Numbered from the stretch's first letter, positions 24,375 to 44,399 are shown. The stretch: 64,000 nucleotides of DNA from Candidatus Altiarchaeota archaeon (GCA_043813075.1 JBDRLL010000006.1:5043-69042), one strand, 5' to 3'. The notes: generated from the letters alone by a model not told the origin. Numbers and translations: made by a program.

Positions 24375-25616
24375 TTATGTTGAGGATGATGAGGATGAGG
24401 ATGTGGATATGACGTATGAACTTGACGTGCTTGATGTGGTGGCTGTGGTGCTGGTAGTAATGCTCGTCGTAGTGGTGATTATGCAGTTAGGACCGTACAA
24501 TCCAAGCGAGACCTTGTAGCCTCCCGGACAGTATTCCCTCCCCCAGAAGCTCTCGTTATAGCAGTCGACCATGATGTGGTAGGTGCCTGCCATCAGATTA
24601 CTGACTGCGCAGGACTCGGGCTCGCCCAGGAAACCCAAGTCTATAGGATGCCTAGGGCAGTCCCATTCAGGCCACTCGTATGGCCATATGCCGTAGTATA
24701 TGCGGGGGCAGAATTCTGGCGTCCAGTTCACGTACAAGTCATAGTCGCTGTCCGCGTCAGGCTGCATTATCACCTCGACGTCACAGACACTACCTTCAGG
24801 TATTGTGAAGAAGTGGTAGTTGTAATCGTCGCCGTGGGTATTGTACTCCCGTTCACTGTCCTCAAGCCTGCATCCACCGTACACTGGCGGGCAATCCCAG
24901 CAATTCGGGACGGTAGTTGAAGTCGAAGTTGTAGTGGTGCTGGTAGTGGTTGTTGAAGTGGACGTGGTAGTCGTGGTGGTCGGCGCTGGCCCGAACTCAT
25001 TCCACGAGACGTCAAACTCCACGGTGGAAAGCTTCTGTCCTGCCGGAACCCGTATGAAAAACAAGTCTTCAACAATGTCGGGAGGGTCATAAACAAGGTC
25101 TAGGTCCCTGTGCAGGATAGGACACCCGCGGATCCTGCACACGTAATCAATGCTCCAGGTGAAGTTCTCGAGAAGCCATGCCCTAGCAACCCATCCCTCG
25201 CGCGGGGTGTCGGCCATGTAGCCGGAAAGCAGGCGGGAGGCGCTAGCCTCATCCCCAGAATCCTTCTCGCTAGTCCTGGTGCCCCCTGAGTCGTAGATGA
25301 CTTGGCTGACGCTGACACCAGCAATCTCAAGACGGTACCCCATGTTCGGGGGGACCATGTTGTCCAAATACTCTCGAGTCAGATTCCCTGCGCCTGAGAC
25401 ATTGCCGGAAGAGTAGAGGAAACCAATCTCCTCGAGAACACCCTTCTTGTTGAGGGTCTCGATAGAATCCTGCGCCACGCCATGAGCCTTCTGGAAGGCG
25501 GCCTTCTCCACCTTACTGGCCCTGAAGTAATGTAGGCCTATGAATCCAGCCATTATGAAAAGCACCATGGAGAGCGATATCAACGCATCCCACGTGAGGA
25601 TATACCCTTTCTTCAT
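24375..25616 (-). CDS. type IV pilin-like protein with PPC-like domain
   Basis: MKKG/YILTWDAL plus hydrophobic helix; Thr linker; SDYDLYV...GEPESC...AGTYHIMV. Confidence 0.7.
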   Translation of the reverse strand: MKKGYILTWDALISLSMVLFIMAGFIGLHYFRASKVEKAAFQKAHGVAQDSIETLNKKGVLEEIGFLYSSGNVSGAGNLTREYLDNMVPPNMGYRLEIAGVSVSQVIYDSGGTRTSEKDSGDEASASRLLSGYMADTPREGWVARAWLLENFTWSIDYVCRIRGCPILHRDLDLVYDPPDIVEDLFFIRVPAGQKLSTVEFDVSWNEFGPAPTTTTTTSTSTTTTSTTTTSTSTTVPNCWDCPPVYGGCRLEDSEREYNTHGDDYNYHFFTIPEGSVCDVEVIMQPDADSDYDLYVNWTPEFCPRIYYGIWPYEWPEWDCPRHPIDLGFLGEPESCAVSNLMAGTYHIMVDCYNESFWGREYCPGGYKVSLGLYGPNCIITTTTSITTSTTATTSSTSSSYVISTSSSSSSST

Positions 25617-25647
25617 TATCTAAGAAACTATTATCCCTAGCCGTTTA

Positions 25648-27405
25648 TTAGACTACCTCGGGTTTTGGGTACACTAGTATGACGCGCAGGTATCCTACAT
25701 CTATGTAGTCTGCGGCAATGCGGCTCCACCTGCCCAACCCGGGGCTGGTTGAATTCTCCCTGCCTACCGCGTAATAACAGTACCGGCCTTCAGCATACTC
25801 CTTCGTGGTCCAGATGTGCTTGCAGTTCTTATCGCCGGGACATATCATCACGTCAGTCCTCCAGGGGATGTCAGGTGCGTCGGTGAACGGGTTCGTTATC
25901 TCCCCCAATTCGAAGTCGTTGGCGGACTTGCCGGAAGGATGAGCGGCATAATCCAGACAATCGAACTTAGGCTTACCTATGACACTCGAGAATGGGAAGA
26001 ATACTCCGTCACTCACGACAAGCTTCTCCATGCCGTCAGTGGCAGTGCCGCTCACGTTAAGGAAGATTGTCTCATCAACCTTGGCCAGCTTGCCCCAAGA
26101 GTCGTTGTATGCCATTATGGTGACAGCCAGGTCACCGTAGATGCACCTGTTGTTGTAGCAGACTTCACAACCCTCCCAGCAGGTGGAAGAGTCGACGCAA
26201 TACTCCCCGCAATCACCCTTCTCACATATGTAGGTGGCGGGGTCTCCGTCCACCTCAACGGGGTAGACGTCGCAGTAGCGGCAGCCAAGCTCGCATTCCT
26301 CGATAGTAGGGTCTTCAGCACTGCAGTTCTTGCCGCAGTCACCCTGCTCGCAGCGGAAACCCGCTTGGATTGATGTATTGCAGTAGAGGCATCTTTCCTC
26401 GCACTCCTCGTAATAGTCGAACTCGTCGCAAGACGCGCCGCAAGATCCATTCGGCTCGCACGTGTATACATCACGGCCCAGCCGGTAGTCATACTGCTGC
26501 CAGCAGTACTCGCACTCGAACTCCTCCTCGTTAAGCCAGATATCCATCTCACACTCTTCAGGGAATCCTCTAGGATGCCAGCAAGGCAGTCCGCACGTAT
26601 CATCCTCCTTCTTCTCCTCGCACTTGCCGCCCGGCCCTGAGACGGAGAGGTTACACCACTTGCAGGGATTCGGACCCTCATCCTCGAGATAGTCGCAGTC
26701 CTCGTCAGCCTCACAGTATTCATCGCACTTGCCGGATGGAACGCACCTCTGGTCCTGGTTGCAGTACGGGCACGCGCTATCCTGCATCTCCTCCTCGCAT
26801 ATGATGGAGAAGCTTCCGGGATCAGGGCAGAACATGTAGCATACGGACACCGGCAGGCTCGTTGTAGTGAGGAACGGCGGGACGCTCCATGGCTCCTCTA
26901 TGTGGCCGTAGAGCTTGCCCACACTCTCAAGCTCGCTGCCGGAGACTGTGTTTACGTAGTTGACGACAACGTCCGCGTCATAGTAGTCCCCTATACGGTA
27001 ATTGTTTTCAATGGACTGGCCTATGGCACAGCTGGATTCTATGACAACTGAGTCCTGTGGGTTTATCACCACTTCTTCAGCCGGGACTGGAGTGCACTCG
27101 ACGATGCCGAAAGACACGTTAACCCCGTAGATGGGTATCCTAACGGGAACGTCGCCCTCATTCTTTACTTTAACGTATATCGAGTTGTTCTGGGCTATAA
27201 CCCAGTCGACTGGGATGACCTGTGAGAACCCAGCCCAACCCCTCCGCTGGATGAGAGGCTTTAAAACGCCAGTCTGCCAGAGGAGGACCAGCGTTATGGA
27301 GAGGAAAAGGATTACTAGGGAAAACACTAGCAGATTTTCTACAGATATCTGGCCTTTAAACCCCTTAACCCTATTAGATGAACGCACAAGCATCCTTTTT
27401 AACAC
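25648..27405 (-). CDS. type IV pilin-like protein with six six-Cys modules
   Basis: KG/QISVE plus hydrophobic helix; 36 Cys in six C-x3-C-xn-C-xn-C-x2-C-xn-C units. The start may be ATG 27393. Confidence 0.75.
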   Translation of the reverse strand: MLKRMLVRSSNRVKGFKGQISVENLLVFSLVILFLSITLVLLWQTGVLKPLIQRRGWAGFSQVIPVDWVIAQNNSIYVKVKNEGDVPVRIPIYGVNVSFGIVECTPVPAEEVVINPQDSVVIESSCAIGQSIENNYRIGDYYDADVVVNYVNTVSGSELESVGKLYGHIEEPWSVPPFLTTTSLPVSVCYMFCPDPGSFSIICEEEMQDSACPYCNQDQRCVPSGKCDEYCEADEDCDYLEDEGPNPCKWCNLSVSGPGGKCEEKKEDDTCGLPCWHPRGFPEECEMDIWLNEEEFECEYCWQQYDYRLGRDVYTCEPNGSCGASCDEFDYYEECEERCLYCNTSIQAGFRCEQGDCGKNCSAEDPTIEECELGCRYCDVYPVEVDGDPATYICEKGDCGEYCVDSSTCWEGCEVCYNNRCIYGDLAVTIMAYNDSWGKLAKVDETIFLNVSGTATDGMEKLVVSDGVFFPFSSVIGKPKFDCLDYAAHPSGKSANDFELGEITNPFTDAPDIPWRTDVMICPGDKNCKHIWTTKEYAEGRYCYYAVGRENSTSPGLGRWSRIAADYIDVGYLRVILVYPKPEVV

Positions 27406-27467: not shown

Positions 27468-28325
27468 ATGAGAAAGATAATACTATCTGCCCTAGCATTG
27501 TTCATAATATCAAGCACGTGTTCGGCGACGTTCATACGCATGGATGTGCTATTGAACACGCCGCCGTTAATAGAGGAGGACAACTTCCTGATTAACGTCA
27601 CGGTAACCAACAGCGGCGACGAGCCTGCCCACGACGTTCAGTTAGGCCTTAACCTGCCTGAAGGATTCACGTCAGATGAGATATACGTTGGCACGCTGAA
27701 CCCTAACCGGCCTTTCAACGGTTATTTCAAGGTTTCAACCGACAATGTGCTGCCAGGCAGATATCCCATAATAATGAAGACGCATTACGCTGACGCCAAC
27801 GCCTACCCGTTCTCTACGATAGCCCCTAAATTCATAGACTTCAAGATGCACTCCAAGTCCGACACAATGGCGAAGATGGAGAACATCGAGTTGGGGGCTG
27901 ACGAGGATGAAGGCAGAGACATAAAGCTTACTGTCATAAACAGGGACACCGCACCACACACATACTCTGTGAGAATGCACACGCCCAACGAGATTGTGGT
28001 GGAGACGATGAGCCAGAGCGTCGACGTGCCCGCCACCGGCGAGAAGGAGGTTTTATTCAGGGTGAAGCCTTTCGGGGCGATATCGAACAGCGCGTATGTT
28101 GTGGCAGCAACCCTGGAATACGAAGACTCTGCGAGTGGGAGCACCATGCACCGTTCATTCATAGCCACAGGACTTGTGAAGATAGTTGATGCCGGCCGGA
28201 TGGATTACATCCCGAACTGGCTGCCCGTAGCAGCACTGATATTACTGATAGCCGTCTTCGTGTCACTGCAGCTAAAGAAGAGGGCGAGTGGCGGGGATAA
28301 GAAGAGGGAGTATAAGGTGGATTAG
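27468..28325 (+). CDS. membrane-anchored CARDB/Ig-like surface protein
   Basis: Signal peptide, VTVTNSGDEPAHDV..LNLPEGF, C-terminal TM plus KKR. Confidence 0.65.
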   Translation: MRKIILSALALFIISSTCSATFIRMDVLLNTPPLIEEDNFLINVTVTNSGDEPAHDVQLGLNLPEGFTSDEIYVGTLNPNRPFNGYFKVSTDNVLPGRYPIIMKTHYADANAYPFSTIAPKFIDFKMHSKSDTMAKMENIELGADEDEGRDIKLTVINRDTAPHTYSVRMHTPNEIVVETMSQSVDVPATGEKEVLFRVKPFGAISNSAYVVAATLEYEDSASGSTMHRSFIATGLVKIVDAGRMDYIPNWLPVAALILLIAVFVSLQLKKRASGGDKKREYKVD

Positions 28326-28380: not shown

Positions 28381-30684
28381 ATGAGTGGTAAATCAGAGAC
28401 AAAAGAGAAAAAGACTGCTAAGCACAAGCAGGATAAGAAATTCAAGGTGGACATAAAATACGGTGGATATGACCTGAAGTTCAACATAAAGCCAACACCA
28501 CAACTGATATCCAACATACTCGTATTCCTTATAATATACTGGTACCTGCTCTCCATATTCACCCCCAAACTGATGCTGTTGGAGACCATAACAACAGGCG
28601 GGGACACGGCCTCACACTACTACCCGACTAAATTCCTCAAGGAAGAGCTCATACCAAAGGGGCATATAATCGGCTGGCTGCCGGGATGGTACGGTGGTAT
28701 GCCATTGTTCCAGTTCTATTTCCCAGTCCTATTCGTCCTGATAGCATTCATGAGCTACGTGATACCGCTACAGATAGCCTTCAAGATTGTGAGCGCGTTA
28801 GGGGTGTTCCTGCTGCCGTTAACCGCGTTCCTTGCCATGAGAGTCATGAAATTCAGGTATCCGATGCCCATCATAGCCGCCATATTCACGATGCCGTTCC
28901 TATTCATGGAGTCGCACACGATGTGGGGCGGCAACATACCGAGCACGCTAGCTGGAGAATTCACTTACGGCTGCAGCATGTCGCTGATGGTGCTGCTGCT
29001 TGCAATGATATACAGGGGGCTTGAGGAGGACAAATGGATAATCAGGAACGCTGTTTTCATGGCCATAGTCTGCTTGACGCACGTTTACACGATAATATTC
29101 ACTGTCGCCTCGATACCATACCTTTATTTCACTAGGAACGTCAAGGAGTTAAAAAGGAGGATAGTGTACTCCCTGAAAGTCTACCCCCTGGCAATCATGC
29201 TGACAGGATTCTGGCTTATCCCGCTTCTCGCAAGACACAAGTGGACTGCAGTATACGACTTCGTGTGGGACATCACGGAAGAGGTGTTCCCGGTGCTCCT
29301 GTATCCGTTCTTCCTTTTCATGATTATTGGGATACACATGATGATCATAAACCAGGATAAGAGGGTGGGGTTCATGTTCTTCTCGATAATAGCGTCATTA
29401 CTGTTGTTCAAGTTCGGGAGCCTGCTTGGCGCCGGAATGGTTGACATAAGGTTCCTCCCGTTCACATACCTCTACACCCTCCTCATCGCAGCATACGGGA
29501 TGTACACTTTGGTGAAGAATGTTGAGGGGGCCTGGATTCTGCCGCTCATAATCGTCTTCCTAACCCTATTTTGGATAAACGAGTACAACGTAAGCGTCCC
29601 CAATGAAGGAGTCACCATGGACTTCATAGTGCAGGAACTCAAAAACTTCAGGTATCATGGCTTCACACCCTCATGGGTGAAGTGGAACTACGACGGCTTC
29701 GAGAGGAAGATGCGGTGGGCAGAGTTCAAGGAGGTGAACGACTACCTGACTGGGACATACAATGACCCTAGAGTAAAGTTCGAGCACAACGACCACCACA
29801 ACGAGGCGGGAACGGTCAGGGCCTACGAGTCCGTCCCACTCTTCGCTGGAAGGTCGATACTTGAGGGGTTGTACATGCAGTCGATACACACTTCAGTGTT
29901 CTCGTTCCTCATTCAGGCAGAAGTCTCAAAACAACAGTCATGCCCCTACTGGCACCGGTTCCCGTGCACGCATTTTGACATAGAAAACGGGACCAAACAC
30001 ATGCTAATGTTCAACGTGCGGCACATAATAGTCAGGAGCGACATGCTGAAGGAGGCGCTGCGGGAGAGAGAAGACTACAAGATGGTCTTGGAGACAGACA
30101 ACCATGAGATATGGGAGCTGACTGATAACACAGGCCATTATGTGACAGTGCCCCAGTATGAGCCGGTGCTCTTCAAGACAGACACCTGGCTGAATGACTC
30201 ATACAACTGGTTCAGGAACATGAGCCTGATAGACACGCCGCTCGTGTTTGTGGAGGAGATAGAGCCGGAGGACGCAGTATACTTCAGAAACGTCAAGGAA
30301 GATGGGGATTGGAGGGACATCCCGAAGGTGCCATTAGACAATAACTGCAACATAGAGGAGAAGCTGACTGCGGACGAGATATGGTTCAAGACGGACTGCG
30401 TGGGCAAACCACACATAATAAGCGTGTCCTACTACCCTAGCTGGAGGCCGGTCGGGGCAGATAAAGTGTATCTGATATCGCCTTCATTCATGATGGTAAT
30501 ACCAGAGCAGGAGGAGGTTAGGCTTGTGTACAGTAAGCTTCCGGAGGACTGGATAGGGCTTTTACTGAGTTTCACTGGATTTTTGACGGTATCCTGTGTC
30601 ATAGCATACTACGGTAATGGTAGGGTGAGGAAGATGATTGACGGTAGCATGCTGGGTGACGCATACAGGAAGTACGCTTCCTAG
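28381..30684 (+). CDS. GT-C-type membrane protein (PTPS-related/YfhO-like)
   Basis: TTGGDTASH, WLPGWYGGMPLFQFYFP, GGNIPSTLAGEF, many TM segments, C-terminal SYYPSW. Confidence 0.8.
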   Translation: MSGKSETKEKKTAKHKQDKKFKVDIKYGGYDLKFNIKPTPQLISNILVFLIIYWYLLSIFTPKLMLLETITTGGDTASHYYPTKFLKEELIPKGHIIGWLPGWYGGMPLFQFYFPVLFVLIAFMSYVIPLQIAFKIVSALGVFLLPLTAFLAMRVMKFRYPMPIIAAIFTMPFLFMESHTMWGGNIPSTLAGEFTYGCSMSLMVLLLAMIYRGLEEDKWIIRNAVFMAIVCLTHVYTIIFTVASIPYLYFTRNVKELKRRIVYSLKVYPLAIMLTGFWLIPLLARHKWTAVYDFVWDITEEVFPVLLYPFFLFMIIGIHMMIINQDKRVGFMFFSIIASLLLFKFGSLLGAGMVDIRFLPFTYLYTLLIAAYGMYTLVKNVEGAWILPLIIVFLTLFWINEYNVSVPNEGVTMDFIVQELKNFRYHGFTPSWVKWNYDGFERKMRWAEFKEVNDYLTGTYNDPRVKFEHNDHHNEAGTVRAYESVPLFAGRSILEGLYMQSIHTSVFSFLIQAEVSKQQSCPYWHRFPCTHFDIENGTKHMLMFNVRHIIVRSDMLKEALREREDYKMVLETDNHEIWELTDNTGHYVTVPQYEPVLFKTDTWLNDSYNWFRNMSLIDTPLVFVEEIEPEDAVYFRNVKEDGDWRDIPKVPLDNNCNIEEKLTADEIWFKTDCVGKPHIISVSYYPSWRPVGADKVYLISPSFMMVIPEQEEVRLVYSKLPEDWIGLLLSFTGFLTVSCVIAYYGNGRVRKMIDGSMLGDAYRKYAS

Positions 30685-31373
30685 CGGACTTTAAGCCAGA
30701 GGGAAACCAGGTTTTTGAAGCGGTAGAATATCTCGTTCACTAGGTTGAATTTGCTTCCCCTAGTGTCATTGCAGAAGACGGGTATCTCAACAACGCTGCC
30801 GCCATCCTTCTTTACGTGATAAACCAGTTCGATCACGTAGGATGAGCCGTGGTCTATGTCCTTCACGTAGGGGAGTATGTCAGACCTAACCCAACCCTTG
30901 GTGCCTATGCTATAGTCGCGGTAGTCCAGCCCCAGCAGCGCTCGGACCAGCTGTATGAATACGCCGCTTATGAATGTCCTGTAAGCCTTCCTCTCCTGCT
31001 TCCCCAGGTACTTTGAGCCTATGACCACGCTATTATCATCTAGCTTGGAGACGCAGTCTTTTATGAAGCTGAGGTCTGAAGATAGATCCATGTCGAGGGA
31101 TACAAGCTTCTCTGAGGATGCTGCGTCAACCATCTTGGTGAAGGCGTAGCCTACGCCACGACGGGGTATGAATAGGAACCTGAATCTGCCGGGATACCTT
31201 TCCTCGAGAACACGCCCCAATTCCACCGTACGGTCCGTGGAACCGTTGCTGCATACTATAACCTCGTATTCGCCAATCTTCGCCTTATCAAGGTATTTTA
31301 TCAGCTTGCCGGTGTTTTCAACGAGCAGCTCCTCCTCATTGTAGACAGGTATCATAACGGAAAAGTCCATCAT
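30681..31373 (-). CDS. GT2 glycosyltransferase
   Basis: IPVYNEE, NGSTDRT, SLDMDLS. Confidence 0.88.
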   Translation of the reverse strand: MMDFSVMIPVYNEEELLVENTGKLIKYLDKAKIGEYEVIVCSNGSTDRTVELGRVLEERYPGRFRFLFIPRRGVGYAFTKMVDAASSEKLVSLDMDLSSDLSFIKDCVSKLDDNSVVIGSKYLGKQERKAYRTFISGVFIQLVRALLGLDYRDYSIGTKGWVRSDILPYVKDIDHGSSYVIELVYHVKKDGGSVVEIPVFCNDTRGSKFNLVNEIFYRFKNLVSLWLKVR

Positions 31374-31412: not shown

Positions 31413-31859
31413 GTGACCGGGAAAAAGGCTAAGAACGCTGGGAAGGGGTTTAGTGCGCGTGGAAAAGGCATTGCCCATAGGAGACTAGCGTATGCCATTA
31501 TTGTTATCATAGCGTACTCTCTGCCAGCATACCTGTTGTATGAGAACTACTCGAAGAACGACAAGAGCAGTATGGACGGCGGGTGGGGGTACGGCACCGG
31601 AGTGTTCGAGGCCCTTGACGAGGATGCGCTGATACTTAGCAGATGGTCGGCTTACACCCTCCTCAACCACTTCAAGTACGTGGTGTATGATAGGGGGGAT
31701 GTGACCATACTTTCGAGGCGTAAGATCGACTGGCTTAAGGAGGTTGACAGGAACTATGGTGAGAAGCCAGTATACTTGACTGAGATGGATGATAAGGTCT
31801 CTGAGAAATACGTTCTAGAGAGGGTCGGTGGGATATATCATGTCAAGAAAAGGAAATAG
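31413..31859 (+). CDS. C-terminal module of a DUF2723/TMEM260-like transferase (split gene)
   Basis: TM plus LPAYLLYENYSKNDKS...YG...ALDEDALILSRW.....L.HFKYV...RGDV...KPVYL, matching the usual C-terminal part of DUF2723 proteins. Confidence 0.65.
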   Translation: MTGKKAKNAGKGFSARGKGIAHRRLAYAIIVIIAYSLPAYLLYENYSKNDKSSMDGGWGYGTGVFEALDEDALILSRWSAYTLLNHFKYVVYDRGDVTILSRRKIDWLKEVDRNYGEKPVYLTEMDDKVSEKYVLERVGGIYHVKKRK

Positions 31860-32931
31860 GTGGGGGGGTGTCACTCCAGGGCTTATCGTATTCACAACCA
31901 CGCTAGTCGTGTATCTTAGCACAGTGTCTACAAACGTTGGTAGGGGGGATACGGGAGAATTCCAGACGCTCCCATATGTGTTCGGCATAGCGCATCCAAC
32001 GGGATACCCCACATACATCCTACTGGGTAGCGTATTCAGATGGATTCCGCTAGGTTCTTATGCATACAGGATTAACCTCATGTCCGCATTCTTCGGGTCG
32101 GTTACCGCATACCTCCTTTACAGGATTGTAATGAAGTACGCGGAAAACGTGTATGCCGCTTCAGCCGCCGCCCTAACCCTCGCCTTCAGCAAGCTATACT
32201 GGAGCCAGTCGGTCATAGCGGAAGCATATATCCTGAACGCATTCTTCCTCGTCTCATGCCTACTACTACTGCTTGAATGGAGGGATGGGGGAGACAACAG
32301 ACTACTCTACGCGTTTAGCATACTATATGGCATTGGCTTAGGCAACCACATGTCCCTCGCACTCTACGCCCCGGCCTACGCATTCATAATACTTAGGAGG
32401 GATTGGAGGGTGCTGCTTGACGGCAGATTATTGAAGATGTTCGCCTTATTCGCCATAGGAGCCTCAGTCTACGCCTACATCCTAATACGCGACAACCCCG
32501 GGACCCCGATGAACTACATACACGAGTTCTCGGTGGAACACGGGACGTTCAACTACTCCGAAAACGCCGTTAAAGACAGGTTCGAGAGGCTTGGCTGGAT
32601 GGTCAAGGGACGGCAGTTCAACGCAGACGAACTGACATACAAGAGGCTTACTAGCACCATGGAAGAGCAGAGACTACGGGAGTCATGGGGAAGGATTATG
32701 GAGCAGATAACAGTCTTCGGGGCTATACTCTGCATCATTGGAGTCTCACGCCTCTTCATGAAGGACAAGCCGATGCTGGCTGCAACAATCATCTTCTTCA
32801 CGCTAAACACCATGAGGTTTGGTGGTGGAATGTACGAGCACAGCATACCTTCAGTGATAATATGCTGCATATGGATAGGATTCGGTGTTGAACAAACGTC
32901 AGAATACGTGCGTCAGAGAGTGCTGGTGTAG
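31840..32931 (+). CDS. N-terminal DUF2723/TMEM260-like GT-C domain (split gene)
   Basis: GDTGEFQ...GIAHPTGYPTY, RINLMSA, WSQSVIAEAY, GLGNH; ends just after IPS...IWIGFG. Confidence 0.85.
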   Translation: MSRKGNRWGGVTPGLIVFTTTLVVYLSTVSTNVGRGDTGEFQTLPYVFGIAHPTGYPTYILLGSVFRWIPLGSYAYRINLMSAFFGSVTAYLLYRIVMKYAENVYAASAAALTLAFSKLYWSQSVIAEAYILNAFFLVSCLLLLLEWRDGGDNRLLYAFSILYGIGLGNHMSLALYAPAYAFIILRRDWRVLLDGRLLKMFALFAIGASVYAYILIRDNPGTPMNYIHEFSVEHGTFNYSENAVKDRFERLGWMVKGRQFNADELTYKRLTSTMEEQRLRESWGRIMEQITVFGAILCIIGVSRLFMKDKPMLAATIIFFTLNTMRFGGGMYEHSIPSVIICCIWIGFGVEQTSEYVRQRVLV

Positions 32932-36173: not shown

Positions 36174-37292
36174 CTAGACGCATAACACGCATATCTCGTC
36201 GCCTGCTATGAAGGCGTCGCAGTTGGCGTCCACATACTGGCCTATCTTCTTATGCCTGAGTTGGCATGCTGCTTGCGCTGACTGCAGGTCGCGCTGGCAG
36301 CTGCTGCCTGGAAGCACGTTACTGCAGCTAACTGGTGGTGACTGGGACTTGCAGGTGACGCACAATTCATCTCCAGGATTGAATGCATCGCAGTTGGCAT
36401 TAACAGTCTGGTCCACCACCTTGCCCTGAAGCTGGCATGAAGACTGTGCCGCCTGGAGGGTGCGCTGGCAGCTGCTGCCCTGCAGGACGCTGCTGCACTT
36501 GACTGCAGGTGACGGAGACTTGCATTTAACGCACAATTCGTCCCCTGGATTCATGCGGTCGCAGTTAGCCTGCTGGGTCTGGTCGATGACCATGTTCATA
36601 AGCTGGCATGAAGACTGTGCCGCCTGCATGTCGCGCTGGCAGCTGCTGCCTGGAAGCACCTGGTTGCAGGGCGTGAAAGGTGAAGGCGCCTTGCAAGTGA
36701 CGCAGACTTCTGGTCCGATCCTGAATGCATCACAGTCAACGGTGATTACCTGGTCGACGACCATGTTCTTAAGCCCGCACGCCGCCTGGGCTGCCTGAAG
36801 GTCGCGCTGACAGCTACTGCCTGGAAGCACCTTGCGACAGGAGGACTTTGGGGGAAGGGTTGTGGTCGTGGTTGTGGACTTACACTGCCTTAAGCCCCTG
36901 CAGTCAGGGTCCTTGCAGTCGACCAGGCCGTCACAGTCGTCGTCCGCCTTGTTAGAGCATTTTTTCCCCTTCTCGCTCCCGGATTTCTTGCAGTTGGGGT
37001 CTGCGCAGTCTATGAGTCCGTCACAGTCGTCGTCAACCCCGTTAGAGCATTTATTACGCATCTCCTTCCCCCGCATCGAGTTCTTGCATCCAGGATCCTT
37101 GCAGTCGACCAGGCCGTCGCGGTCGTCATCCACACCGTTAGAGCACTTCTTCCTGCCCTTCTCAGGACGTGACTTGCCCTTCTTGGAGGATACTGTTGAG
37201 GCAAGAGCCCAAGTCACTAGGATAAGCACCATGATGACTACAAGAGTCTTCTGGCTTGTTTTTCGGAGCCTTACATTCATAGAGGAGGACAT
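36174..37292 (-). CDS. exported Cys-rich repeat protein (three DDDxDGLxDC repeats plus four 57-aa six-Cys repeats)
   Basis: N-terminal hydrophobic helix; repeats visible at DNA level with a 171-bp period; start at 37292 or 37280. Confidence 0.8.
   Translation of the reverse strand: MSSSMNVRLRKTSQKTLVVIMVLILVTWALASTVSSKKGKSRPEKGRKKCSNGVDDDRDGLVDCKDPGCKNSMRGKEMRNKCSNGVDDDCDGLIDCADPNCKKSGSEKGKKCSNKADDDCDGLVDCKDPDCRGLRQCKSTTTTTTLPPKSSCRKVLPGSSCQRDLQAAQAACGLKNMVVDQVITVDCDAFRIGPEVCVTCKAPSPFTPCNQVLPGSSCQRDMQAAQSSCQLMNMVIDQTQQANCDRMNPGDELCVKCKSPSPAVKCSSVLQGSSCQRTLQAAQSSCQLQGKVVDQTVNANCDAFNPGDELCVTCKSQSPPVSCSNVLPGSSCQRDLQSAQAACQLRHKKIGQYVDANCDAFIAGDEICVLCV
36177..36842 (-). repeat. four-copy 171-bp coding tandem repeat
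   Basis: GGCAGCTGCTGCC-like anchors at 36296, 36467, 36638 and 36809. Confidence 0.85.
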
Positions 37293-37329
37293 TACGTAAA
37301 GATAATAGGCGTATTTAATTAAAAAAAAG

Positions 37330-39318
37330 TCAGGTGAAGCAGGGCATCCAGTCGAGTGGCGTGTCGTCTGCAACATCCGCTTCACCGAGCTTGCTGCAGT
37401 ATCCAAGGTCGCTTTCACCGGTGACTATGAAGTTGTACGTGTTCCCAGTCAAGTCCGCCAACCGCGGGTTGTTGAAGTTCACCTCACACGTCATGTTGTA
37501 GTACGTCGGATCCGCGTCAACATACTCTGTCTTGCATGCGTCAAGGAATAGGTAGTCTGTGCCATTGTCAAGGTAGAACGCCCAGTAAGTCTCCTCGTCA
37601 AAGCCGTGAGTACCAAGCCAGTATACGCTGACATCCTTGACGTCGCCGCATGTGACAGGCTCCCCGTCAACGTTAATCCAGTATATCCTGTCGATAGTAC
37701 CTCCTGGAATGCATTTCTCCTTAAGGCCTCCGGGATTGAATCCGGACAGCTCGGTGTAGGATATGCAGCCCTTTAGGAGCACGTTCCTGCTGTAGACTGC
37801 GTCGGCGATGAAGTTCATTTCTGGCGTGCAGTAGCCGGCGTAATCCTCTGCAGTGACTATAAGGTTATGGAATCCGTCGGCAGCATCCAGGTTGACGGGC
37901 ACGTTCACGTTGCATATCATGTCGTAGTTGTATGCGCGCTCAGGATCCTCGGGGGTTGTGTTCGTGCTATTGCAGGAGTCCAGATAGTGGGCTCCATCAT
38001 CCAGGAAGAAAGCCCAGTGATTGAAGTCGCTGTTATGGTTGCCATGCCATCTGACGGTGATGTCAAGGGACTTGCCGCACTGTAGGGGACGCAGCACTGT
38101 GACGTCGTCTATGACGACCACTGGATTAGCGCCGTCAAAACAATCGAATTGAGCCTCCCCGACGCATGACACGACGTGGGTGTTGGGGGACAGCGTTGTC
38201 GTCGTGGTTGTCGACACTATAGGTTCATATCGTCCGCTACTCCATATAACAACCCTCTGCTTGAATGTGTTTTTCAGTATCCTCTGTTTCCCGCTCAACA
38301 GGGTCAGGTCATCCATAGGCTCGCTGAATGACGCTGTCTTGACACTGCTGACGAAATCTGGAACCTCATCGCTCATAACGTGGTTTCCGACGATGCACTC
38401 CTTGATGCTGTTCGGGTTTCCATAGGACCAGGTATTGCTGTTTCGGGGGTCGTAGAGTGCATCAGTGGTCAGTAGGACAACGTCTATCAGGCTGTTGGGG
38501 TCTGTGTTGTCAAAGTATAGTTGTATCGAGTGTCCAGCGAATACACCGCCGACCTTGCTCCATTCAACGGAGCCTCTTAGAGTATTGAAGATGTAGAACG
38601 GCTCGCCGTCGACGACTATCTGGAGCACAGTGCTGCTGCTGAGGCCCCTAACCCATATGTGGTAGTAGCCTGGAGTCGTCTCAACAGTCTTCACGTTGTT
38701 GCCGTCATACTGCAGTTCGCTCATGAAACCGGCGGAACAACCGCGACTACATCGACTGGTCGTGTTAAACCCCCAGAATCGCTCGTCCTCAGCCTCAATC
38801 CATATGTGGGTGTCTGTGGTGTGGTTTGTTATGGTGAAGTTGAATCCGTTGAGGCATGATACTGGACGGTTATTTTCGTCGAGATGAATGCCCTGCATGC
38901 AACCAACATCTGACGTGTTGATGCACGAGTATACTATGTAGAAGTCGTATCTGCTGGAGCCGAGAAGACTCCTCCTTATATCAGTGTAATTCTCCTCCAG
39001 GTTCTTGATGAAATTCAACAGCTTATCAGGGTCGACGATACGATCCTGGAAGAAGACTCGCTCGCCGACAGGGGTTATGTCCGAAAGACCGTAGACTTTA
39101 ACCGTATCCTGCTTCCAGTCTTCAGGGTATCCGGGAGTCTTAACCAGCTGCTCGCCGACGGAGTCTGACAGCCACTGCATCTCGAATATCCTAAGGTCGC
39201 CGCTGATGTCCATTGTGACCGAATCCCAGAGGTAGATTACTATGGAGAATATGACTAGGAACAATACCGCCGAGAATGTGAGATCCCATGTGAATACCTG
39301 CCCCCTGCCCCCCCTCAA
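37330..39318 (-). CDS. type IV pilin-like protein with CBM-like and tandem Ig-like domains
   Basis: RG/QVFTWD plus hydrophobic helix, LVKTPGYPEDW, WIEAE..YHIWVRG..IDVVLLTTD..YDP, duplicated WxGxH..WAFxLD domain; likely TTG start at 39318. Confidence 0.72.
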   Translation of the reverse strand: MRGGRGQVFTWDLTFSAVLFLVIFSIVIYLWDSVTMDISGDLRIFEMQWLSDSVGEQLVKTPGYPEDWKQDTVKVYGLSDITPVGERVFFQDRIVDPDKLLNFIKNLEENYTDIRRSLLGSSRYDFYIVYSCINTSDVGCMQGIHLDENNRPVSCLNGFNFTITNHTTDTHIWIEAEDERFWGFNTTSRCSRGCSAGFMSELQYDGNNVKTVETTPGYYHIWVRGLSSSTVLQIVVDGEPFYIFNTLRGSVEWSKVGGVFAGHSIQLYFDNTDPNSLIDVVLLTTDALYDPRNSNTWSYGNPNSIKECIVGNHVMSDEVPDFVSSVKTASFSEPMDDLTLLSGKQRILKNTFKQRVVIWSSGRYEPIVSTTTTTTLSPNTHVVSCVGEAQFDCFDGANPVVVIDDVTVLRPLQCGKSLDITVRWHGNHNSDFNHWAFFLDDGAHYLDSCNSTNTTPEDPERAYNYDMICNVNVPVNLDAADGFHNLIVTAEDYAGYCTPEMNFIADAVYSRNVLLKGCISYTELSGFNPGGLKEKCIPGGTIDRIYWINVDGEPVTCGDVKDVSVYWLGTHGFDEETYWAFYLDNGTDYLFLDACKTEYVDADPTYYNMTCEVNFNNPRLADLTGNTYNFIVTGESDLGYCSKLGEADVADDTPLDWMPCFT

Positions 39319-39319
39319 C

Positions 39320-40276
39320 TTAGGGATACGTGATGCATACGTCATCGTTAGTGTTTAAAGTGATTTTACTGCCGTCAGCGTTAATCCATACCCAGTCAGT
39401 ACCCAACGGCGCTTCGAGGGGGTTAATACACATCCTGAAGCCCGTGGAGTTGAAGACAAACATTACCCCATCCAATTCTCCTGGTGTTGGGTTCCATACG
39501 CCCTCAGGCTCGACGTTCAGGCTGAACTCGCCCACATCGTCGGAGTATATGCTATCCAGATCCCCCATTATGTCGTGGAAATCCATCTTCACCACATCGT
39601 CGACCTTGTGGCGTATCACGAAGTCCAGTTGATCGGAATCCGTGTCCTCATACACATACATCAGGCTGCCGCCGTTGACGAGATGGGTTTCAGCCATGGA
39701 CGTGGAAGCGAGGTAAGCGTCGTCAGAACCGATGAAAGGAGAGACCATCACATTCAAGCCGCGGGACATGAGATTGTATCTCTCGGTGATGTAAACCCTG
39801 CCCTGACGCCTCAACACCCTCGCGTCAATGGACTCGTTGACGTGGATGCACCTCTCGCTCACACTCACATTGCAGAGTCCATTGCAATGCCGGAGAAAAC
39901 ACTCCACCCTCATCGTTGATATTGGAGCGCTGAAGTAGAGGGTCTTACCCCTCGCGAAAGCAGACCCCTTGACGAAGACTGTAGGCTGGTCTGGGAAGAA
40001 ACTCACGTTATAATCGCTGAAAGCATAAAGACGGGCTGGAATGTTGAAATACATCCAGTAGCCGTCACCCACCATGTTGACGGTGTTGATATTGTCGGCA
40101 ATAGAGGTCACAGCAAGGAGGCCATCTATGTAAACCTTGAAGTCGCTTGTTCTGACATACTTCAGGTATATAACGTAACTGGACATCATGAAGATCATGA
40201 GGAGGATTCCCATGACTGCGATAAACTCGACTGTTACTTGACTTGAATTCGACTTGCAGTGGATCATTGCAGGCAA
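39320..40276 (-). CDS. type IV pilin-like protein
   Basis: SS/QVTVEF plus hydrophobic helix, IADNINTV..VGDGY. Confidence 0.68.
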   Translation of the reverse strand: MPAMIHCKSNSSQVTVEFIAVMGILLMIFMMSSYVIYLKYVRTSDFKVYIDGLLAVTSIADNINTVNMVGDGYWMYFNIPARLYAFSDYNVSFFPDQPTVFVKGSAFARGKTLYFSAPISTMRVECFLRHCNGLCNVSVSERCIHVNESIDARVLRRQGRVYITERYNLMSRGLNVMVSPFIGSDDAYLASTSMAETHLVNGGSLMYVYEDTDSDQLDFVIRHKVDDVVKMDFHDIMGDLDSIYSDDVGEFSLNVEPEGVWNPTPGELDGVMFVFNSTGFRMCINPLEAPLGTDWVWINADGSKITLNTNDDVCITYP

Positions 40277-40712: not shown

Positions 40713-40799
40713 GATGTACGCCTCTTGAATAATATTTATATATAGACTACATATAAAGTAGCCTATAAAATATGGACAAGACTTAGGGGTTTGATAGAC

Positions 40800-41102
40800 A
40801 TGGAATACGAGACGATTGTGAGTGAATACGTGGACTACGGCAGGAACAAGTTCATAGAGGTTTCTAGGAAGAAGGTTCTGCCAGACCAGACAGAGTTTTT
40901 GAACATCTCCAAGGGGTATTACACTCCTGACGGAGAAAAGAGATACCAGAGAGGTATCGGATTCCCGGTTGAGGAATCGATTGTCAGCAGCCTTATCAAC
41001 AAGCTGCAGATAGTCATATCCTCTGCTGAGGGGAGTTCTGGGTCGTCCTCAGAGATGATGGATGAATCCCAGGATGAGGTTCAAGAATCTCCGATGGAGT
41101 AG
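40800..41102 (+). CDS. hypothetical protein, possible PC4/PUR-like nucleic-acid-binding fold
   Basis: Beta-rich KFIEVSRK..EFLNISKGYYTPDGEKRYQRGIGFP, then a helix and acidic tail; SD GGGGT upstream. Confidence 0.55.
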   Translation: MEYETIVSEYVDYGRNKFIEVSRKKVLPDQTEFLNISKGYYTPDGEKRYQRGIGFPVEESIVSSLINKLQIVISSAEGSSGSSSEMMDESQDEVQESPME

Positions 41103-41156: not shown

Positions 41157-44100
41157 TCAACCCAAATTCTTTAATTTATTTTTTACATACTTTATGACTT
41201 CATCAATCTCGCCAGACATGTCAGGGTGCTTTGACTTGAAGTCCTCCAGCTCGTTTATTATGTCCTTGCCTGCCTGCCCTAAACCCTTCTTGTCTTCATG
41301 CAGCTTGCCTAGTACCGTGGCCAAAACCTTCTCCTTTTCGGAAACACCACCAACAGATGGTTTGACCTCTGATTTACCTGCAGTCTGTAACTCCTTCTCC
41401 TTCTGCCTCAAACGTTCCTCCCACTCAGACAGCTCTCGCTCGCGTTCTGAAGCATCATTGGGCATGTCAGCGTGGGAGCGTATTTTCTTCTCCATCTCAT
41501 GCAGGTCATGCTCCTTCTCCTTCAGACGCTGCTCCCAGTCGAAGAGCTTATGCTCCCTGCCTGAAAGACCGCCCTTGAACTCTGAATCCGTCCCATGATC
41601 GGATAACTCGGCCTCCCTCTTGTCCAGTTCGCTGGAACGCCTGTTCAACTCCTGCTCCCATTTTGAAAGCCTGCCCTCAAGTTCCGGGTCATGGGATGGG
41701 ACAGAACCGGAAAACAACTCCTCCCGTTCGGAGATGGCTTTTTCACGTGCGTCAAGCTCGCTCGCACGCTTAGCTAATGCATCCTCCAGGTCCGCGGACT
41801 CGCCGCCATCGGGAGCATGTTCATGTAGAGAACGCTCCTTCTCAGAGACTTCTTCCTCCCGCTTGATAACCGCTTCCAGACGCTCGTTAACCGTCTTTTC
41901 CTTTGAAGAAAGGGATTCTCGAACATCATTTAGCCTAGCAGACTCCTTCCCCAACTCAACCTCCCTTTCGGACAGCAGCCTCTCCCGCTCATCGATTTCC
42001 CCAATCCTCTCCTTAAGCACATCATCGGACTCCCCGGAGAAGTGCTTATCACCCAAGACCGCCTCCTTCTCCGCGATGGTCGCCTCCCTGTGGACTATGT
42101 TAGACTCCCTCTTCTGCAACTCAGCCTCCATCTTCGACAGCTTAGCCTCCTTCTCATCTAGCTCCGGTAGCTTTAAAGTCACATCCTGCTCGGAATCGTT
42201 GATCTTCCTCTCCCTAGCCTCAAGCTCGCCAGCCCTCTGGTTTAGATTGGTCTCCCTCTTATTCAACAACTTCTCGCGCTCAGCTAGGGTGGCGTTAGAC
42301 TCCTCTATCTTAGCCTCACGCTTCTCCAAGTTGGCTTCGCGTTCGCCGATAAGACGCTCCCTCTTTGTGAATGAATCAGCCTTCTTCTCTATATCAGCCG
42401 CATAGCCGCTGAAATCGCTCTCACGCTTGACCAAAACAGTCTCCCTATTCTTCATCTCCTGGAACTTCTGGTTCAACTCCCCGTCACGCGCTTCAGCCGC
42501 CTTCTCACGCTTCTCGACGAGTACCAGACGGGATTTTATCTCGCCCTCCACCTTACCGACATTGGATTCCCGCTCCTTCAGTATCTTTTCAGCCTCAGTC
42601 AACGCATTCTTTGTTGCGTTAACCTGCTGCTCACGAGCCTCAAGCCTTGACTGCGCTTCACCAAGCTTGTTTTCCCTGTCGTCAAGAGCCTTCCCGCGCT
42701 TATTCAACTCCGCATTCCTTGTGTTAAGCTCGGATTCCCTGGATTTTATCCCAGATTCCCTGTCCGTCAGCTCCTTCTCCTTGGGTTTGATCGCAGCCTC
42801 CCTCTGATTCAGGTTCGACTCCTTTTCACCGAGCATGCGTTCCTTGTCTGACTGCCGCTCCTCCCTGGACTTGACTGCCTCCTCACGCTTTCCGAGTTCT
42901 GTCTCCCTGCCATTTAGCACAGACTCCCGATCCTTTAAGGCAGCCTCGTTTGAGTCCAGCTCAGACTGCCTGCGTGAAAGGCCCTCATCCCTCTGATTAA
43001 GCCCGTCTTCCCTCGACTTCGCGGTTTTCTCAGACTCTGAAAGAATCTTCTCCCTTGCCTTCAAGTCAGATTCCCGGGAGTTAAGAGAGTCCTCCCTGGT
43101 GTCAAGCTCCGAATCCTTCTTTATGAGCGCCCGTTCCCTCTCCTTAAGCGCCTTATCGTCCTCCGCGAGATTAGCCTCCCTTGCTGAGAGGGATGAATCC
43201 GTCCTAGCGAGATCCTCAGATTTGGCGAGAAGACTACTCTCCCGGGCATCCAGCTTAGACTCCCTCTCACTCAAAACCCTTTCACGCGCATTCAAACCCT
43301 CTTCAATCACGTCGAGGGCTGACGCCCTATCATCTATGTTCTCCACTCTAGCGCTCAACTCACCCTCACGAGCGTTAACATCGCGCTCCCTGTCATTCAG
43401 CTTACTCTCACGGGATTTGACGGAAGACTCCCTGCCCTTGAGCTCTGACTCAAGGGAACGCAACTCCTTCTCAGCCACGTCAAGCCCATTAGACTTCTTG
43501 TTCAACTCGGATTCCTTCTTACCCAGCTCTAACTCCTTCCCACCCAATTTCTCTTCTTTACTATCGAGTTTCTCCTTCTGCTCATGCAACTCCTTCCTCA
43601 GCTCCTCAACAGACTTCTTCTCTGACTTCAGCTTGCTCTCACGGTCCAGAATGCTCTTCTCCTTCCCGTCCAGCTCCGCCTTCTTTACCTTTATCAGCTC
43701 CTCCTGCGCGATTATCGCTTTTTCACGAGCCTCGAACTCGTGGACGTCCCGTATGAAGTCGTCCTGCATGGACGCTAGCCTATGCTCCCATCCGGTGAAA
43801 TGCTCCTCCTTAGCCTGAAGATAATCCCTGTCATGGCGTTCGACACGTGGACTTGGCGCAGGCCTCTGGACCACCGTCTCCCTCATGACTTCGGGAGGCT
43901 TCTTCCGCTTCTTAGCCTGCTCCTTGTGCTTTTCAATCTCCTCCTCAACCTTTTCTTTAACAGCGTCATCCTGGGGCAAGTCAACCTTGCGGTCTTCAGT
44001 GTCCGGTTGGCTGCCATCACCGGAGTCGGACGGGGGTATGGGCGAGGATATGGACTCTCCCTCGCCTTTTGTGGCGGCGATACGCCGTTCAAGAACTCGT

Positions 44101-44399
44101 TTATGCATCAGACCTATGATTTCATCGGCAGACTCGCTTGACTCAGCCTCCTCCTTATCCAAGCCCGTTATTTCCTCTTCATCAAGGTCTGCGTCGATAC
44201 GAGAACCAGGCTTGAATACGGTTTCACCCACTATCGTGTAATGGATTTTTATGATCTCATGGTCTTTCAGTATCTTGGCGATGTTTATGACCGTTTCCTC
44301 ATCTTCGCCGAGACGTGAGACAGCATCCTCTAGCTTTATCTCCTTAGCCTCCTTAACCAGTTCTGTGAAACGCTGTAGAACACTCTTGTCTAAAGGCAT
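41157..44399 (-). CDS. large coiled-coil protein with N-terminal winged-helix-like domain
   Basis: 77 consecutive LxxRExx-type heptads (42057-43673). No ATPase, hinge or TM motif. Confidence 0.85.
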   Translation of the reverse strand: MPLDKSVLQRFTELVKEAKEIKLEDAVSRLGEDEETVINIAKILKDHEIIKIHYTIVGETVFKPGSRIDADLDEEEITGLDKEEAESSESADEIIGLMHKRVLERRIAATKGEGESISSPIPPSDSGDGSQPDTEDRKVDLPQDDAVKEKVEEEIEKHKEQAKKRKKPPEVMRETVVQRPAPSPRVERHDRDYLQAKEEHFTGWEHRLASMQDDFIRDVHEFEAREKAIIAQEELIKVKKAELDGKEKSILDRESKLKSEKKSVEELRKELHEQKEKLDSKEEKLGGKELELGKKESELNKKSNGLDVAEKELRSLESELKGRESSVKSRESKLNDRERDVNAREGELSARVENIDDRASALDVIEEGLNARERVLSERESKLDARESSLLAKSEDLARTDSSLSAREANLAEDDKALKERERALIKKDSELDTREDSLNSRESDLKAREKILSESEKTAKSREDGLNQRDEGLSRRQSELDSNEAALKDRESVLNGRETELGKREEAVKSREERQSDKERMLGEKESNLNQREAAIKPKEKELTDRESGIKSRESELNTRNAELNKRGKALDDRENKLGEAQSRLEAREQQVNATKNALTEAEKILKERESNVGKVEGEIKSRLVLVEKREKAAEARDGELNQKFQEMKNRETVLVKRESDFSGYAADIEKKADSFTKRERLIGEREANLEKREAKIEESNATLAEREKLLNKRETNLNQRAGELEARERKINDSEQDVTLKLPELDEKEAKLSKMEAELQKRESNIVHREATIAEKEAVLGDKHFSGESDDVLKERIGEIDERERLLSEREVELGKESARLNDVRESLSSKEKTVNERLEAVIKREEEVSEKERSLHEHAPDGGESADLEDALAKRASELDAREKAISEREELFSGSVPSHDPELEGRLSKWEQELNRRSSELDKREAELSDHGTDSEFKGGLSGREHKLFDWEQRLKEKEHDLHEMEKKIRSHADMPNDASERERELSEWEERLRQKEKELQTAGKSEVKPSVGGVSEKEKVLATVLGKLHEDKKGLGQAGKDIINELEDFKSKHPDMSGEIDEVIKYVKNKLKNLG

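Follow-up and report, generated by a model that had tools for sequence, protein, structure and literature searches.

Pilin-like genes around a glycosylation island in an Altiarchaeota genome: a lineage-specific gene set that probably serves a type IV pilus of the euryarchaeal kind

What kind of system is encoded by a row of pilin-like genes that is split by glycosylation genes and has no pilus motor beside it? This question is raised by a block at positions 24375-44399 of a 64,000-nucleotide stretch of DNA from a Candidatus Altiarchaeota archaeon (GCA_043813075.1, JBDRLL010000006.1:5043-69042), and the whole stretch is referred to here as the window. The window lies on contig C6 of an Altiarchaeota metagenome-assembled genome (1.8 Mb, 41 contigs, 89%-complete) and contains archaeal signature genes for TFE-alpha and a wyosine radical-SAM protein. 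The original prediction, made from this DNA alone, saw in the block a candidate for an undescribed adhesive-pilus system. Our analysis leads to a different view, namely that the block is not a free-standing new system: its pilin and glycosylation genes are specific to this lineage and belong to the euryarchaeal kind of type IV pili, with the motor encoded in trans. It probably provides the sticky parts of a type IV pilus, for which the motor genes lie elsewhere in the genome. In the following, G000 denotes this genome and G001 to G018 its relatives, and L numbers denote loci of the P142 family and other loci; L loci and G genomes overlap in part.

Five pilin-like genes are present on the minus strand, all with the predicted class III-type N-termini, and they are closely packed with the other genes of the cluster (gaps of -32 to 78 nt). 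The first is P142 (40284-40712; 142 aa, RRG/QASLEY), a small pilin and candidate major subunit, followed by A318 (39320-40276; 318 aa, SS/QVTVEF), a pilin-like protein of type A with E at +5, and B671 (37330-39345; 671 aa, RG/QVFTWD), of type B. The second group consists of E585 (25648-27405; 585 aa, KG/QISVE), in which a pilin domain carries Cys-rich cargo, and C413 (24375-25616; 413 aa, KG/YILTWD), of type C. Judged by sequence, each of the five has a predicted class III signal with a short basic leader, a cut site and a hydrophobic stretch, the leader being followed by G or S, then by Q, or Y in the case of C413, and some 20 hydrophobic residues; Q at +1 is thus found in four of the five. 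The cut-site motif is kept in the orthologues, which read [KR][GA]/QASLEY in type P, /Q[VA]S[VI]EF in A, /Q[IVL]FTWD in B, /Q..[IL]E in E and /Y[IV].TWDA in C. Their -2/-1 residues are mostly [KR][GA], the distance of the motif from the start is fixed, and E at +5 is kept in the P, A and E types. When 1770 greedily called open reading frames (ORFs) of the genome were screened with a class III heuristic of our own making, 25 matched, including all five genes, and most of the others belong to three pilus loci on other contigs. Five matches within 16.3 kb correspond to a Poisson P of 4e-6 against random scatter, which is a crude control, as pilin genes cluster anyway. It is because of the conserved cut sites in orthologues, the stronger evidence, that we regard the five genes as more than a chance gathering. 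Moreover, the AlphaFold2 models of P142 and B671 show the type IV pilin layout of a long N-terminal helix and a beta head.

P142 is free of Cys, carries two conserved N-x-T sequons (at 88 and 138) and is 63-78% identical in six orthologues, across genera. Its AlphaFold2 model, built from 37 sequences with a predicted local distance difference test (pLDDT) of 88.3, has a helix at 3-64 and a seven-stranded domain. No paralogue of P142 was found in the genome (tblastn, E<0.01). A profile scan of one genome per species yielded 38 P142 loci, 22 of them labelled Candidatus Altiarchaeota, Altiarchaeales or Altiarchaeia and 12 'uncultured archaeon', while the other four are labelled Methanobacteriota, Euryarchaeota, Methanosarcinales and Micrarchaeota (a weak match). 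The closest loci (78-64% identity) bear the labels Altiarchaeota or 'uncultured archaeon'. A318, which has seven Cys, adjoins P142 in 21 of the 38 loci, and Q13 and E17 are invariant in an alignment of 17 A-type sequences. As well, a small conserved cytoplasmic protein, s103 (40791-41102, plus strand; 103 aa), is encoded divergently from P142. It adjoins a P142 homologue in 27 of the 38 loci, with 52-77% identity, often above that of the pilin itself, and has no Pfam, NCBIfam or PDB match. The protein, which may be akin to PC4/YdbC-type DNA-binding proteins, is possibly a regulator of the pilin gene.

Do the two groups of pilin-like genes belong together? The original prediction had assigned them to one pilus, and paralogous loci bear this out. 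A318 has a 351-aa paralogue on contig C1 (E 2.4e-11), B671 a 183-aa one (E 1.6e-8) and C413 an 887-aa one with a vWA domain (E 4.5e-18). These A, B and C genes are contiguous and are followed by a type D gene (897 aa) and genes for a DUF2226 protein, a T2SSE ATPase, a KaiC-like protein, two T2SSF proteins and a glycosyltransferase of family 2 (GT2). The locus on C23 holds types B, C and D, a MinD-like protein, an ATPase, two TadC and two small pilins, and that on C35 holds type D, an ATPase, two TadC and two small pilins. In the distant loci L066, L069 and L072, P-like, A, B and C genes stand in uninterrupted order, and in L073 a P-like gene is followed by genes resembling C887, D897, ATPase512 and TadC. 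Since type C follows B directly in C1, C23, L066, L069 and L072, C413 would be the third member of the P-A-B set, and the gene order indicates that the island and E585 are an insertion between B and C.

The prediction that the window lacks a PilB/PilC motor gene is confirmed, and such genes are indeed present elsewhere in the genome, where C1, C23 and C35 each carry a complete locus of an ATPase and two TadC. T2SSE matches above the cut-off lie on C1, C23 and C35 and at C6:70923-72443, whereas T2SSF matches occur only on C1, C23 and C35, two on each. The C1 ATPase matches PilB3_C weakly, below the cut-off (E 0.0012). Because the C1 locus has paralogous A, B and C genes and no small pilin gene of its own, and P142 is without a paralogue, the C1 machine is proposed to serve P142. 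A prepilin peptidase of the A24 family is encoded at 15716-16591 on the plus strand (Pfam Peptidase_A24 E 6.2e-13, Arc_PepC E 6.5e-9), 8 kb from the cluster, and is the single Peptidase_A24 match in the whole genome. The suggested link to an EppA-type peptidase does not hold, as the NCBIfam model PrePilPeptEppA gives it 21.3 bits against a cut-off of 450; the FlaK model gives 22.4 bits against 330.

The T2SSE match on C6 belongs to an orphan ATPase of 506 aa (C6:70923-72443, in L079:1923-3440), 2 kb past the end of the window, which is 64-73% identical in all five relatives tested. In L066, L069 and L072, its orthologue immediately precedes the P-like gene and another ATPase is encoded further downstream, an arrangement that suggests a two-ATPase pilus locus. 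As the sole motor we rejected it, given housekeeping neighbours and no TadC on the contig, and it remains a candidate accessory ATPase. A further ATPase/TadC module is encoded in G002, G012 and G016, separated from P142 by about 14-16 kb with housekeeping genes in between. Besides the three complete loci, stand-alone pilin genes are found on C8, C10 and C37, and five relatives have 6-8 T2SSE matches each, unusually many type IV pilus-like systems for genomes of 1.6-2 Mb.

The larger pilin-like proteins carry extra domains, and here the proposed adhesive cargo gains support. The AlphaFold2 model of B671 (79-sequence alignment, pLDDT 90.8) places a 55-residue helix at 15-69, starting at the predicted G15/Q16 cut, then a beta head with an inserted jelly roll at about 176-300, a disordered Thr linker at 372-385 (Thr run 378-384) and beta-sandwich domains at 389-525 and 531-667; the protein has 19 Cys. 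In VIA-align the jelly roll matches carbohydrate-binding modules (CBM) of the CBM35, CBM6 and CBM36 families, best 6ueh_A (Z 12.0, root-mean-square deviation 2.5 Å over 116 residues, model 179-296), followed by 3zm8_A (Z 11.7) and 2wz8_A (Z 9.9), each over about 115 residues of 176-300. Foldseek with the whole model returned generic tandem beta-sandwiches only, such as transglutaminase C-terminal barrels, RbmA and complement MG domains. None of the Pfam cargo models, including CBM_6, matches B671 of the window itself; among 21 B-type homologues, CBM_6 is found in three and F5_F8_type_C (discoidin), Cohesin, SUEL_Lectin and a NedA-like galactose-binding domain in one each. On the modelled structure, B671 carries a CBM6/35-like, putatively sugar-binding jelly roll.

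In E585, which has 42 Cys, a pilin domain (about 19-175) is followed by Cys-rich repeats and then, at the C-terminus, by a beta domain. At the N-terminus it shows similarity to small pilins encoded on C10, C8 and C35, and residues 27-172 resemble archaeal proteins of about 150 aa, with a template modelling (TM) score of 0.65-0.71 (an Atlas structure, used as a lead). C413 has a Thr linker at 213-235 and a Cys-containing beta domain (12 Cys), and ends inside a second Ser/Thr run. Extra domains behind Thr-rich linkers had been claimed for three proteins; they are clear in B671 and C413, whereas the E585 linker has only three Thr in this genome, with longer Thr runs in orthologues. C-type proteins vary in length from 228 aa to over 1000 aa, and Laminin_G_3 is found in two of eight, VWA in three (the C1 type) and SUEL_Lectin in one. 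In G001, the C413 orthologue (L030:2009-4062) is split into ORFs of 106 and 555 aa, which may reflect a frameshift, a pseudogene or an assembly error.

An exhaustive profile search with B671 through 1.84 billion representatives retrieved 2200 proteins at E<=1e-3, in which the modules occur separately. Positions 1-170 can make up a protein on their own, of about 170-200 aa, giant proteins contain positions 170-360 as repeats, and positions 361-530 are also part of unrelated architectures of up to 3087 aa. All orthologues of B671 cover the pilin module. The two C-terminal domains persist in the closest genera (coverage 0.9-1.0, 23-39% identity), where extra domains are often attached (646-1087 aa), and beyond these genera they are absent (171-368 aa) or largely replaced. 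The Cys-rich cargo of E585 is kept in seven of eight genomes, the G015 copy being a pilin domain alone of 164 aa. Swappable cargo, as first imagined, is therefore only part of the picture: across relatives the cargo is kept, extended, replaced or absent, while that of B671 and E585 is conserved in the closest genera. It is neither invariant nor freely shuffled, and is gained, lost and extended at linker boundaries.

Between the two groups lies the glycosylation island. Divergent from E585 is a gene on the plus strand for an exported, CARDB/NEW3-like protein that is anchored in the membrane by its C-terminus (27468-28325; Pfam NPCBM_assoc E 3.9e-6). It is followed by a PTPS_related polytopic membrane protein (28381-30684, plus; Pfam PF10131 E 1.5e-25), GT2a, a polyprenyl-phosphate sugar synthase-like GT2 (30681-31373, minus; Pfam GT2 E 4.5e-18), and a 148-aa single-pass membrane ORF without a Pfam or NCBIfam family (31413-31859, plus). 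Next come a TMEM260-like GT-C glycosyltransferase of the protein O-mannosyltransferase-like kind, in a short form of 367 aa (31828-32931, plus; Pfam PF11028 E 2.8e-31), and a DUF2079 polytopic membrane protein (32913-34778, minus; Pfam DUF2079 E 9.8e-56 over residues 170-580), the ORF of which is over-extended, with the real start probably near 34517. A second glycosyltransferase, GT2b (34516-35232, plus; Pfam Glycos_transf_2 E 9.2e-28), precedes an NAD-dependent sugar-nucleotide dehydratase/epimerase, a short-chain dehydrogenase/reductase (SDR) of the GDP-mannose-dehydratase type (35222-36172, plus; Pfam GDP_Man_Dehyd E 2.6e-69). The variable slot beside B671 is filled by a Cys-repeat exported protein (36174-37418, minus; true start probably 37292; NCBIfam acid_disulf_rpt E 3.5e-29). 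This protein has three acidic double-disulfide repeats, a Thr linker and four repeats of 57 aa, with no Pfam family, and its DNA repeats have periods of 171 and about 90 nt. The three polytopic families, two GT2, the SDR and the Cys-repeat protein of the original prediction are thus all there, together with the CARDB/NEW3-like protein and the 148-aa ORF beyond the genes first listed; as regular members of the island, the TMEM260-like and Cys-repeat proteins do not stand, being specific to this genome among those compared.

As for the enzymes, GT2a is by sequence a predicted polyprenyl-phosphate sugar synthase (DPM1/GtrB/ArnC-type GT2). Its best PDB matches are the dolichol-P-mannose synthase of P. 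furiosus (5mlz, E 2.4e-10), ArnC (1.2e-6) and the GtrB-like sll0501 (3.2e-6), and it is 59-65% identical in G001, G002, G004, G012, G013 and G016. The TMEM260-like protein matches human TMEM260 (9rql_A, E 8e-23) and is thus a GT-C member. The PTPS_related protein is single-copy in the genome, 45-70% identical in relatives and found in none of 14 control genomes. No PDB sequence matches it at E<=1, while its Atlas model resembles a YfhO cluster (TM 0.73/0.80 over 627 residues), and on this structural lead it is probably a YfhO-like GT-C. No flippase gene was recognised in the window.

The block keeps its outline across relatives. In eight genomes of four genera (G000 and G001; G002 and G012; G004, G013 and G016; G015), s103 stands divergent from P-A-B, then follow a variable slot, glycosylation genes and the CARDB-like gene, which is divergent from E-C, TFE and an HD protein gene; the contig of G018 stops inside the GT-C gene. 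The divergent CARDB-like/E pair is kept in G001, G002, G004, G012, G013, G015 and G016. The island core comprises GT2a, the PTPS_related gene and the CARDB-like gene, and in G004 and G016 the island holds these only. Beyond the core, G002 has DUF2079 and an exported protein of 713 aa, G013 encodes a protein in which seven PEGA domains are combined with a dockerin, and G012 has a 3005-aa protein and several further genes, in a cluster of about 32 kb. DUF2079, GT2b and the SDR of the window recur in the island of G001, whereas that of G015 differs, with PMT_2, two GT2, GNAT, FemAB-like and LPG_synthase_TM genes and two unassigned polytopic proteins. Among the relatives compared, the SDR is in the G001 cluster only, GT2b orthologues are in the clusters of G001 and L042, DUF2079 orthologues are in those of G001, G002, G012 and L042, and the TMEM260-like gene, the 148-aa ORF and the Cys-repeat gene were not found. 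In the more distant L059, CARDB-like, GT2 and polytopic membrane ORFs come right after P-A-B. The expectation of constant pilin N-termini, varying cargo and a linked glycosyltransferase island is thus borne out, with the N-terminal modules staying and glycosyltransferase genes between the two groups in eight genomes. In 8 of 20 relatives of the same family, the PTPS_related gene and a B-type gene lie on one contig, many of the assemblies being fragmented.

Several side observations touch on the pilins and the slot. At L059:9485-10423, a homologue of the N-terminal domain of the coiled-coil protein described below and a P142-like pilin lie in one open frame with no stop between them, for which gene fusion, an ORF called too long and faulty assembly are possible explanations. 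The Thr-linker DNA of the Cys-repeat gene (36847-36879) and that of B671 (38183-38215) are 82% identical over 33 nt, a possible site for module exchange by recombination. The slot protein of G013 (L032:15599-17617) combines its seven PEGA domains with Dockerin_1 (E 5.9e-12), and one B-type homologue (P0004) has a Cohesin domain (E 8.2e-10); the pair hints at a possible docking of slot proteins on the cargo of pilins.

Taken as a whole, the explanation that we favour, and consider reasonably probable, is that the block is the pilin and adhesin set of an altiarchaeal type IV pilus, with its machine elsewhere and an enclosed glycosylation module. P142 would be the filament subunit and form the shaft, while A318, B671, C413 and perhaps E585 would be minor pilins that enter the filament via their N-terminal helices. 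A318, B671 and C413 would most likely make up a priming or tip complex and E585 would be a further cargo-bearing pilin, so that CBM-like lectin, beta-sandwich and Cys-rich domains would be displayed on Thr-rich stalks. All five prepilins would be cut by the single A24 peptidase 8 kb away, and polymerisation would be driven by one of the three machines on other contigs, with that of C1 as the best candidate. The DPM1/GtrB-like GT2 would load a sugar onto polyprenyl phosphate, and the YfhO-like transferase (here also the TMEM260-like and DUF2079 proteins) would move it, outside the membrane, onto the exported pilins or their glycans. We infer cleavage, filament formation, the motor used and the tip location as well as the glycosylation target, the last from gene linkage.

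A bolder version of this idea, which we regard as doubtful, assumes a dedicated archaeal protein O-glycosylation, in which a GT2 and a GT-C of the YfhO, TMEM260 or PMT_2 type would act on the Thr stalks, and in addition takes the window and C1 sets as interchangeable tips on one P142 filament. Archaeal O-glycosylation has, to our knowledge, not been traced to particular enzymes so far. If this version were true, a lectin/CBM tip and a vWA/MAM tip could be mounted by the same machine, and the cell would switch what its pili stick to.

Other explanations place the proteins or the enzymes in different roles. The N-termini could be processed membrane anchors, or form a short stub, that hold the lectin and Cys-rich domains, in a surface-display or pseudopilus set comparable to the bindosome, the class III signal-bearing sugar-binding proteins of Sulfolobus. 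This would agree with a cluster without a motor, with four of five proteins being large and multi-domain, with the carbohydrate-binding fold and with the conserved, membrane-anchored CARDB-like partner. However, the set is headed by the small, highly conserved, Cys-free P142, as expected of a filament subunit, homologous sets lie inside complete ATPase/TadC loci, and E at +5 is retained in three types, and we therefore hold surface display to be unlikely. That the N-termini are ordinary Sec signals or anchors of unrelated surface proteins is barely credible to us: the Pfam class III model accepts a single one of the five, by 0.1 bit, but in orthologues the [KR][GA]/Q or /Y motif keeps a fixed distance from the start, the helices of the models start at the cut site, and the proteins are homologous to products of genes inside complete pilus loci. 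It is also very unlikely that P-A-B serves one machine and E-C another, the two being neighbours by descent, since type C comes directly after B in the five loci named above; separate promoters, the distance of 10 kb and an E585 pilin domain nearer to small pilins of the C35 and C8 loci than to P142 would speak for such a division.

With regard to the enclosed enzymes, they might perform general envelope glycosylation, of the S-layer, lipids or other exported proteins, from a recombination-prone slot, which we find improbable. Island content does vary greatly between genera, the slot also holds unrelated proteins (the 3005-aa one of G012, the PEGA and dockerin one of G013), the GT-C gene is unlinked outside the family, and a second glycosylation block is present at 51163-56895. 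Nevertheless, eight genomes from four genera retain the location between the pilin groups, also where the enzymes differ, GT2a, the PTPS_related gene and CARDB stay beside E-C and are the sole island genes in G004 and G016, the PTPS_related gene is single-copy, and L059 again has CARDB-like and GT2 genes after P-A-B.

Against the pilus explanation stand the following results. Neither T2SSE nor T2SSF is encoded in the window, that is, no complete pilus locus lies beside the pilins, and no motor gene was found in the cluster of any genome compared. A318 of the window is an exception among its orthologues in having S-S at -2/-1 instead of [KR][GA]. The Pfam model PF04021 Class_IIIsignal, 27 positions long, matches P142 only (23.8 bits against a cut-off of 23.7, E 4e-5), while A318, B671, E585 and C413 have no Pfam family and do not match it even at E<=5. 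No solved pilin was matched by the P142 model, for which the best Foldseek hits in the PDB were unrelated OB folds (E 5.7e-3) and a wide VIA-align search gave at best Z 5.5, over the helix only. In Alti-1-like loci, including two SM1-type records, P142 is found alone with s103, or with A only. The PTPS_related and B-type genes share a contig in none of 20 relatives from other families, many of whose assemblies are fragmented, so this linkage is lineage-specific. The GT-C membership of the PTPS_related protein comes from the Atlas structural lead only, and hhalign gives a probability below 1% against the TMEM260-like and PMT_2/STT3-like proteins. The island genes could serve other envelope glycans. 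Finally, a search for RNA sequencing runs of this organism found none, and three DNA runs (0.31, 0.07 and 0.07 of sampled words).

Some neighbouring genes deserve mention. A 1080-aa coiled-coil protein is encoded at 41157-44399 on the minus strand. The original prediction had it flank the block, and the ORF is present there; it is found at full length only in the same genus (G001) and is no conserved cluster member. Residues 1-114 have homologues at this position in L042, L047 and L059, and residues 8-59 weakly resemble the C-terminus of the C1 DUF2226 protein (pairwise E 2e-4), so the protein is a neighbour with a possible link to the pilus. Between the peptidase and the cluster (18368-21655), an 864-aa GLUG-motif protein and a 232-aa CarboxypepD_reg-like protein with a coiled-coil tail are encoded. 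The second glycosylation block (51163-56895, minus strand) holds three GT4 genes and a gene for a 760-aa PMT_2/STT3-like membrane protein (54613-56895), which we considered as AglB and rejected for want of a WWDxG motif; the GT4 orthologue of G012 is the immediate neighbour of an ATPase, TadC and KaiC module.

The uncultivated Altiarchaeota abound in biofilms of the subsurface, and the phylum is noted for its hami. The block gives a candidate major pilin conserved across the phylum, as well as minor pilins with recognisable, putatively sugar-binding cargo, and illustrates clearly how pilin modules recombine with domains of adhesins. Moreover, the link between pilin and extracytoplasmic glycosyltransferase genes offers candidates for pilin-specific, possibly O-linked, archaeal glycosylation.

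How does the block compare with known systems? According to the accessible text of Makarova, Koonin and Albers (2016, PMC4858521), pilin sets served by ATPase/TadC modules in trans are an established pattern of archaeal type IV pili, and minor pilins with adhesin domains are an established idea for them. The euryarchaeal 'clade 2' pili, as far as that text covers them (Haloferax volcanii PilA with PilB3-PilC3; the PilB4 locus; PMC4858521), are similar in having class III pilins, an ATPase with two TadC-like proteins, and pilins apart from the motor, and their loci contain KaiC-like and MinD-like ATPases, as do those of this genome. In contrast to 'clade 2' pili, the pilins of the block match no Pfam or NCBIfam pilin model save Class_IIIsignal on P142, the minor pilins carry lectin, CBM or Cys-rich cargo, and a glycosylation island lies between the pilin genes. 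Some of these families may already have arCOG numbers (Makarova 2016).

The block also resembles Epd in having several essential-type minor pilins and a small major pilin, and two TadC per machine. Q at +1 of the mature pilins, a feature of Epd, is present in four of the five proteins. In Methanococcus maripaludis, the major pilin EpdE is encoded apart from the locus, which comprises the minor EpdA-C, EppA, two TadC-like proteins and an ATPase (partly from the accessible text of PMC4858521). The block differs in its peptidase, which falls far below the EppA and FlaK model cut-offs; the Epd proteins were compared by description only.

In bacteria, minor pilins form priming or tip complexes with adhesins, such as GspH-I-J-K and FimU-PilVWX with the vWA protein PilY1. 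Both these complexes and the proposed minor-pilin set of the block consist of three or four low-abundance pilin-like proteins, some without E5 and one with a large extra domain. The vWA domain in the C1 paralogue of C413 is a PilY1-like feature, the likeness being one of description, not sequence. Unlike in bacterial tip complexes, the adhesin domains are here fused to the pilins, and the tip location would follow from the analogy. An analogy to PilY has also been drawn for archaeal pili, in the portion of the review accessible to us (PMC4858521).

For the island, the partly accessible report on group IV pili of Pseudomonas aeruginosa, in which the GT-C glycosyltransferase TfpW is encoded next to pilA (bioRxiv 10.1101/2020.04.19.049825), offers a parallel. 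There too, by description, a polytopic membrane glycosyltransferase gene lies beside pilin genes and a lipid-linked donor is presumed, whereas the block has a GT2 and YfhO-like pair plus other enzymes, set between minor pilin genes. The pair matches this far: GT2a resembles Dol-P-Man synthase, ArnC and GtrB-like proteins, and the PTPS_related model is YfhO-like. Such GT2 and GT-C pairs for extracytoplasmic glycosylation are known from CsbB/YfhO and GtrB/Gtr. Here, in contrast, the context is archaeal and the presumed target is protein, not teichoic acid or O-antigen.

The hami of the same phylum are likewise attachment appendages, but in the accessible part of the published description the hamus subunit of Candidatus Altiarchaeum hamiconexum is a 97-kDa, S-layer-like protein with a Sec signal, unlike pilins (Perras 2015, PMC4460559), and on this description we set aside a link between the block and hami. 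The loci of the hami-bearing lineage, L070 and L071, keep only P142, with A318 also in L070. No published description of type IV pilin gene clusters in Altiarchaeota was found in a search that left subscription journals aside. Compared with all these systems, the block is new as a lineage-specific variant, not as a new kind of system.

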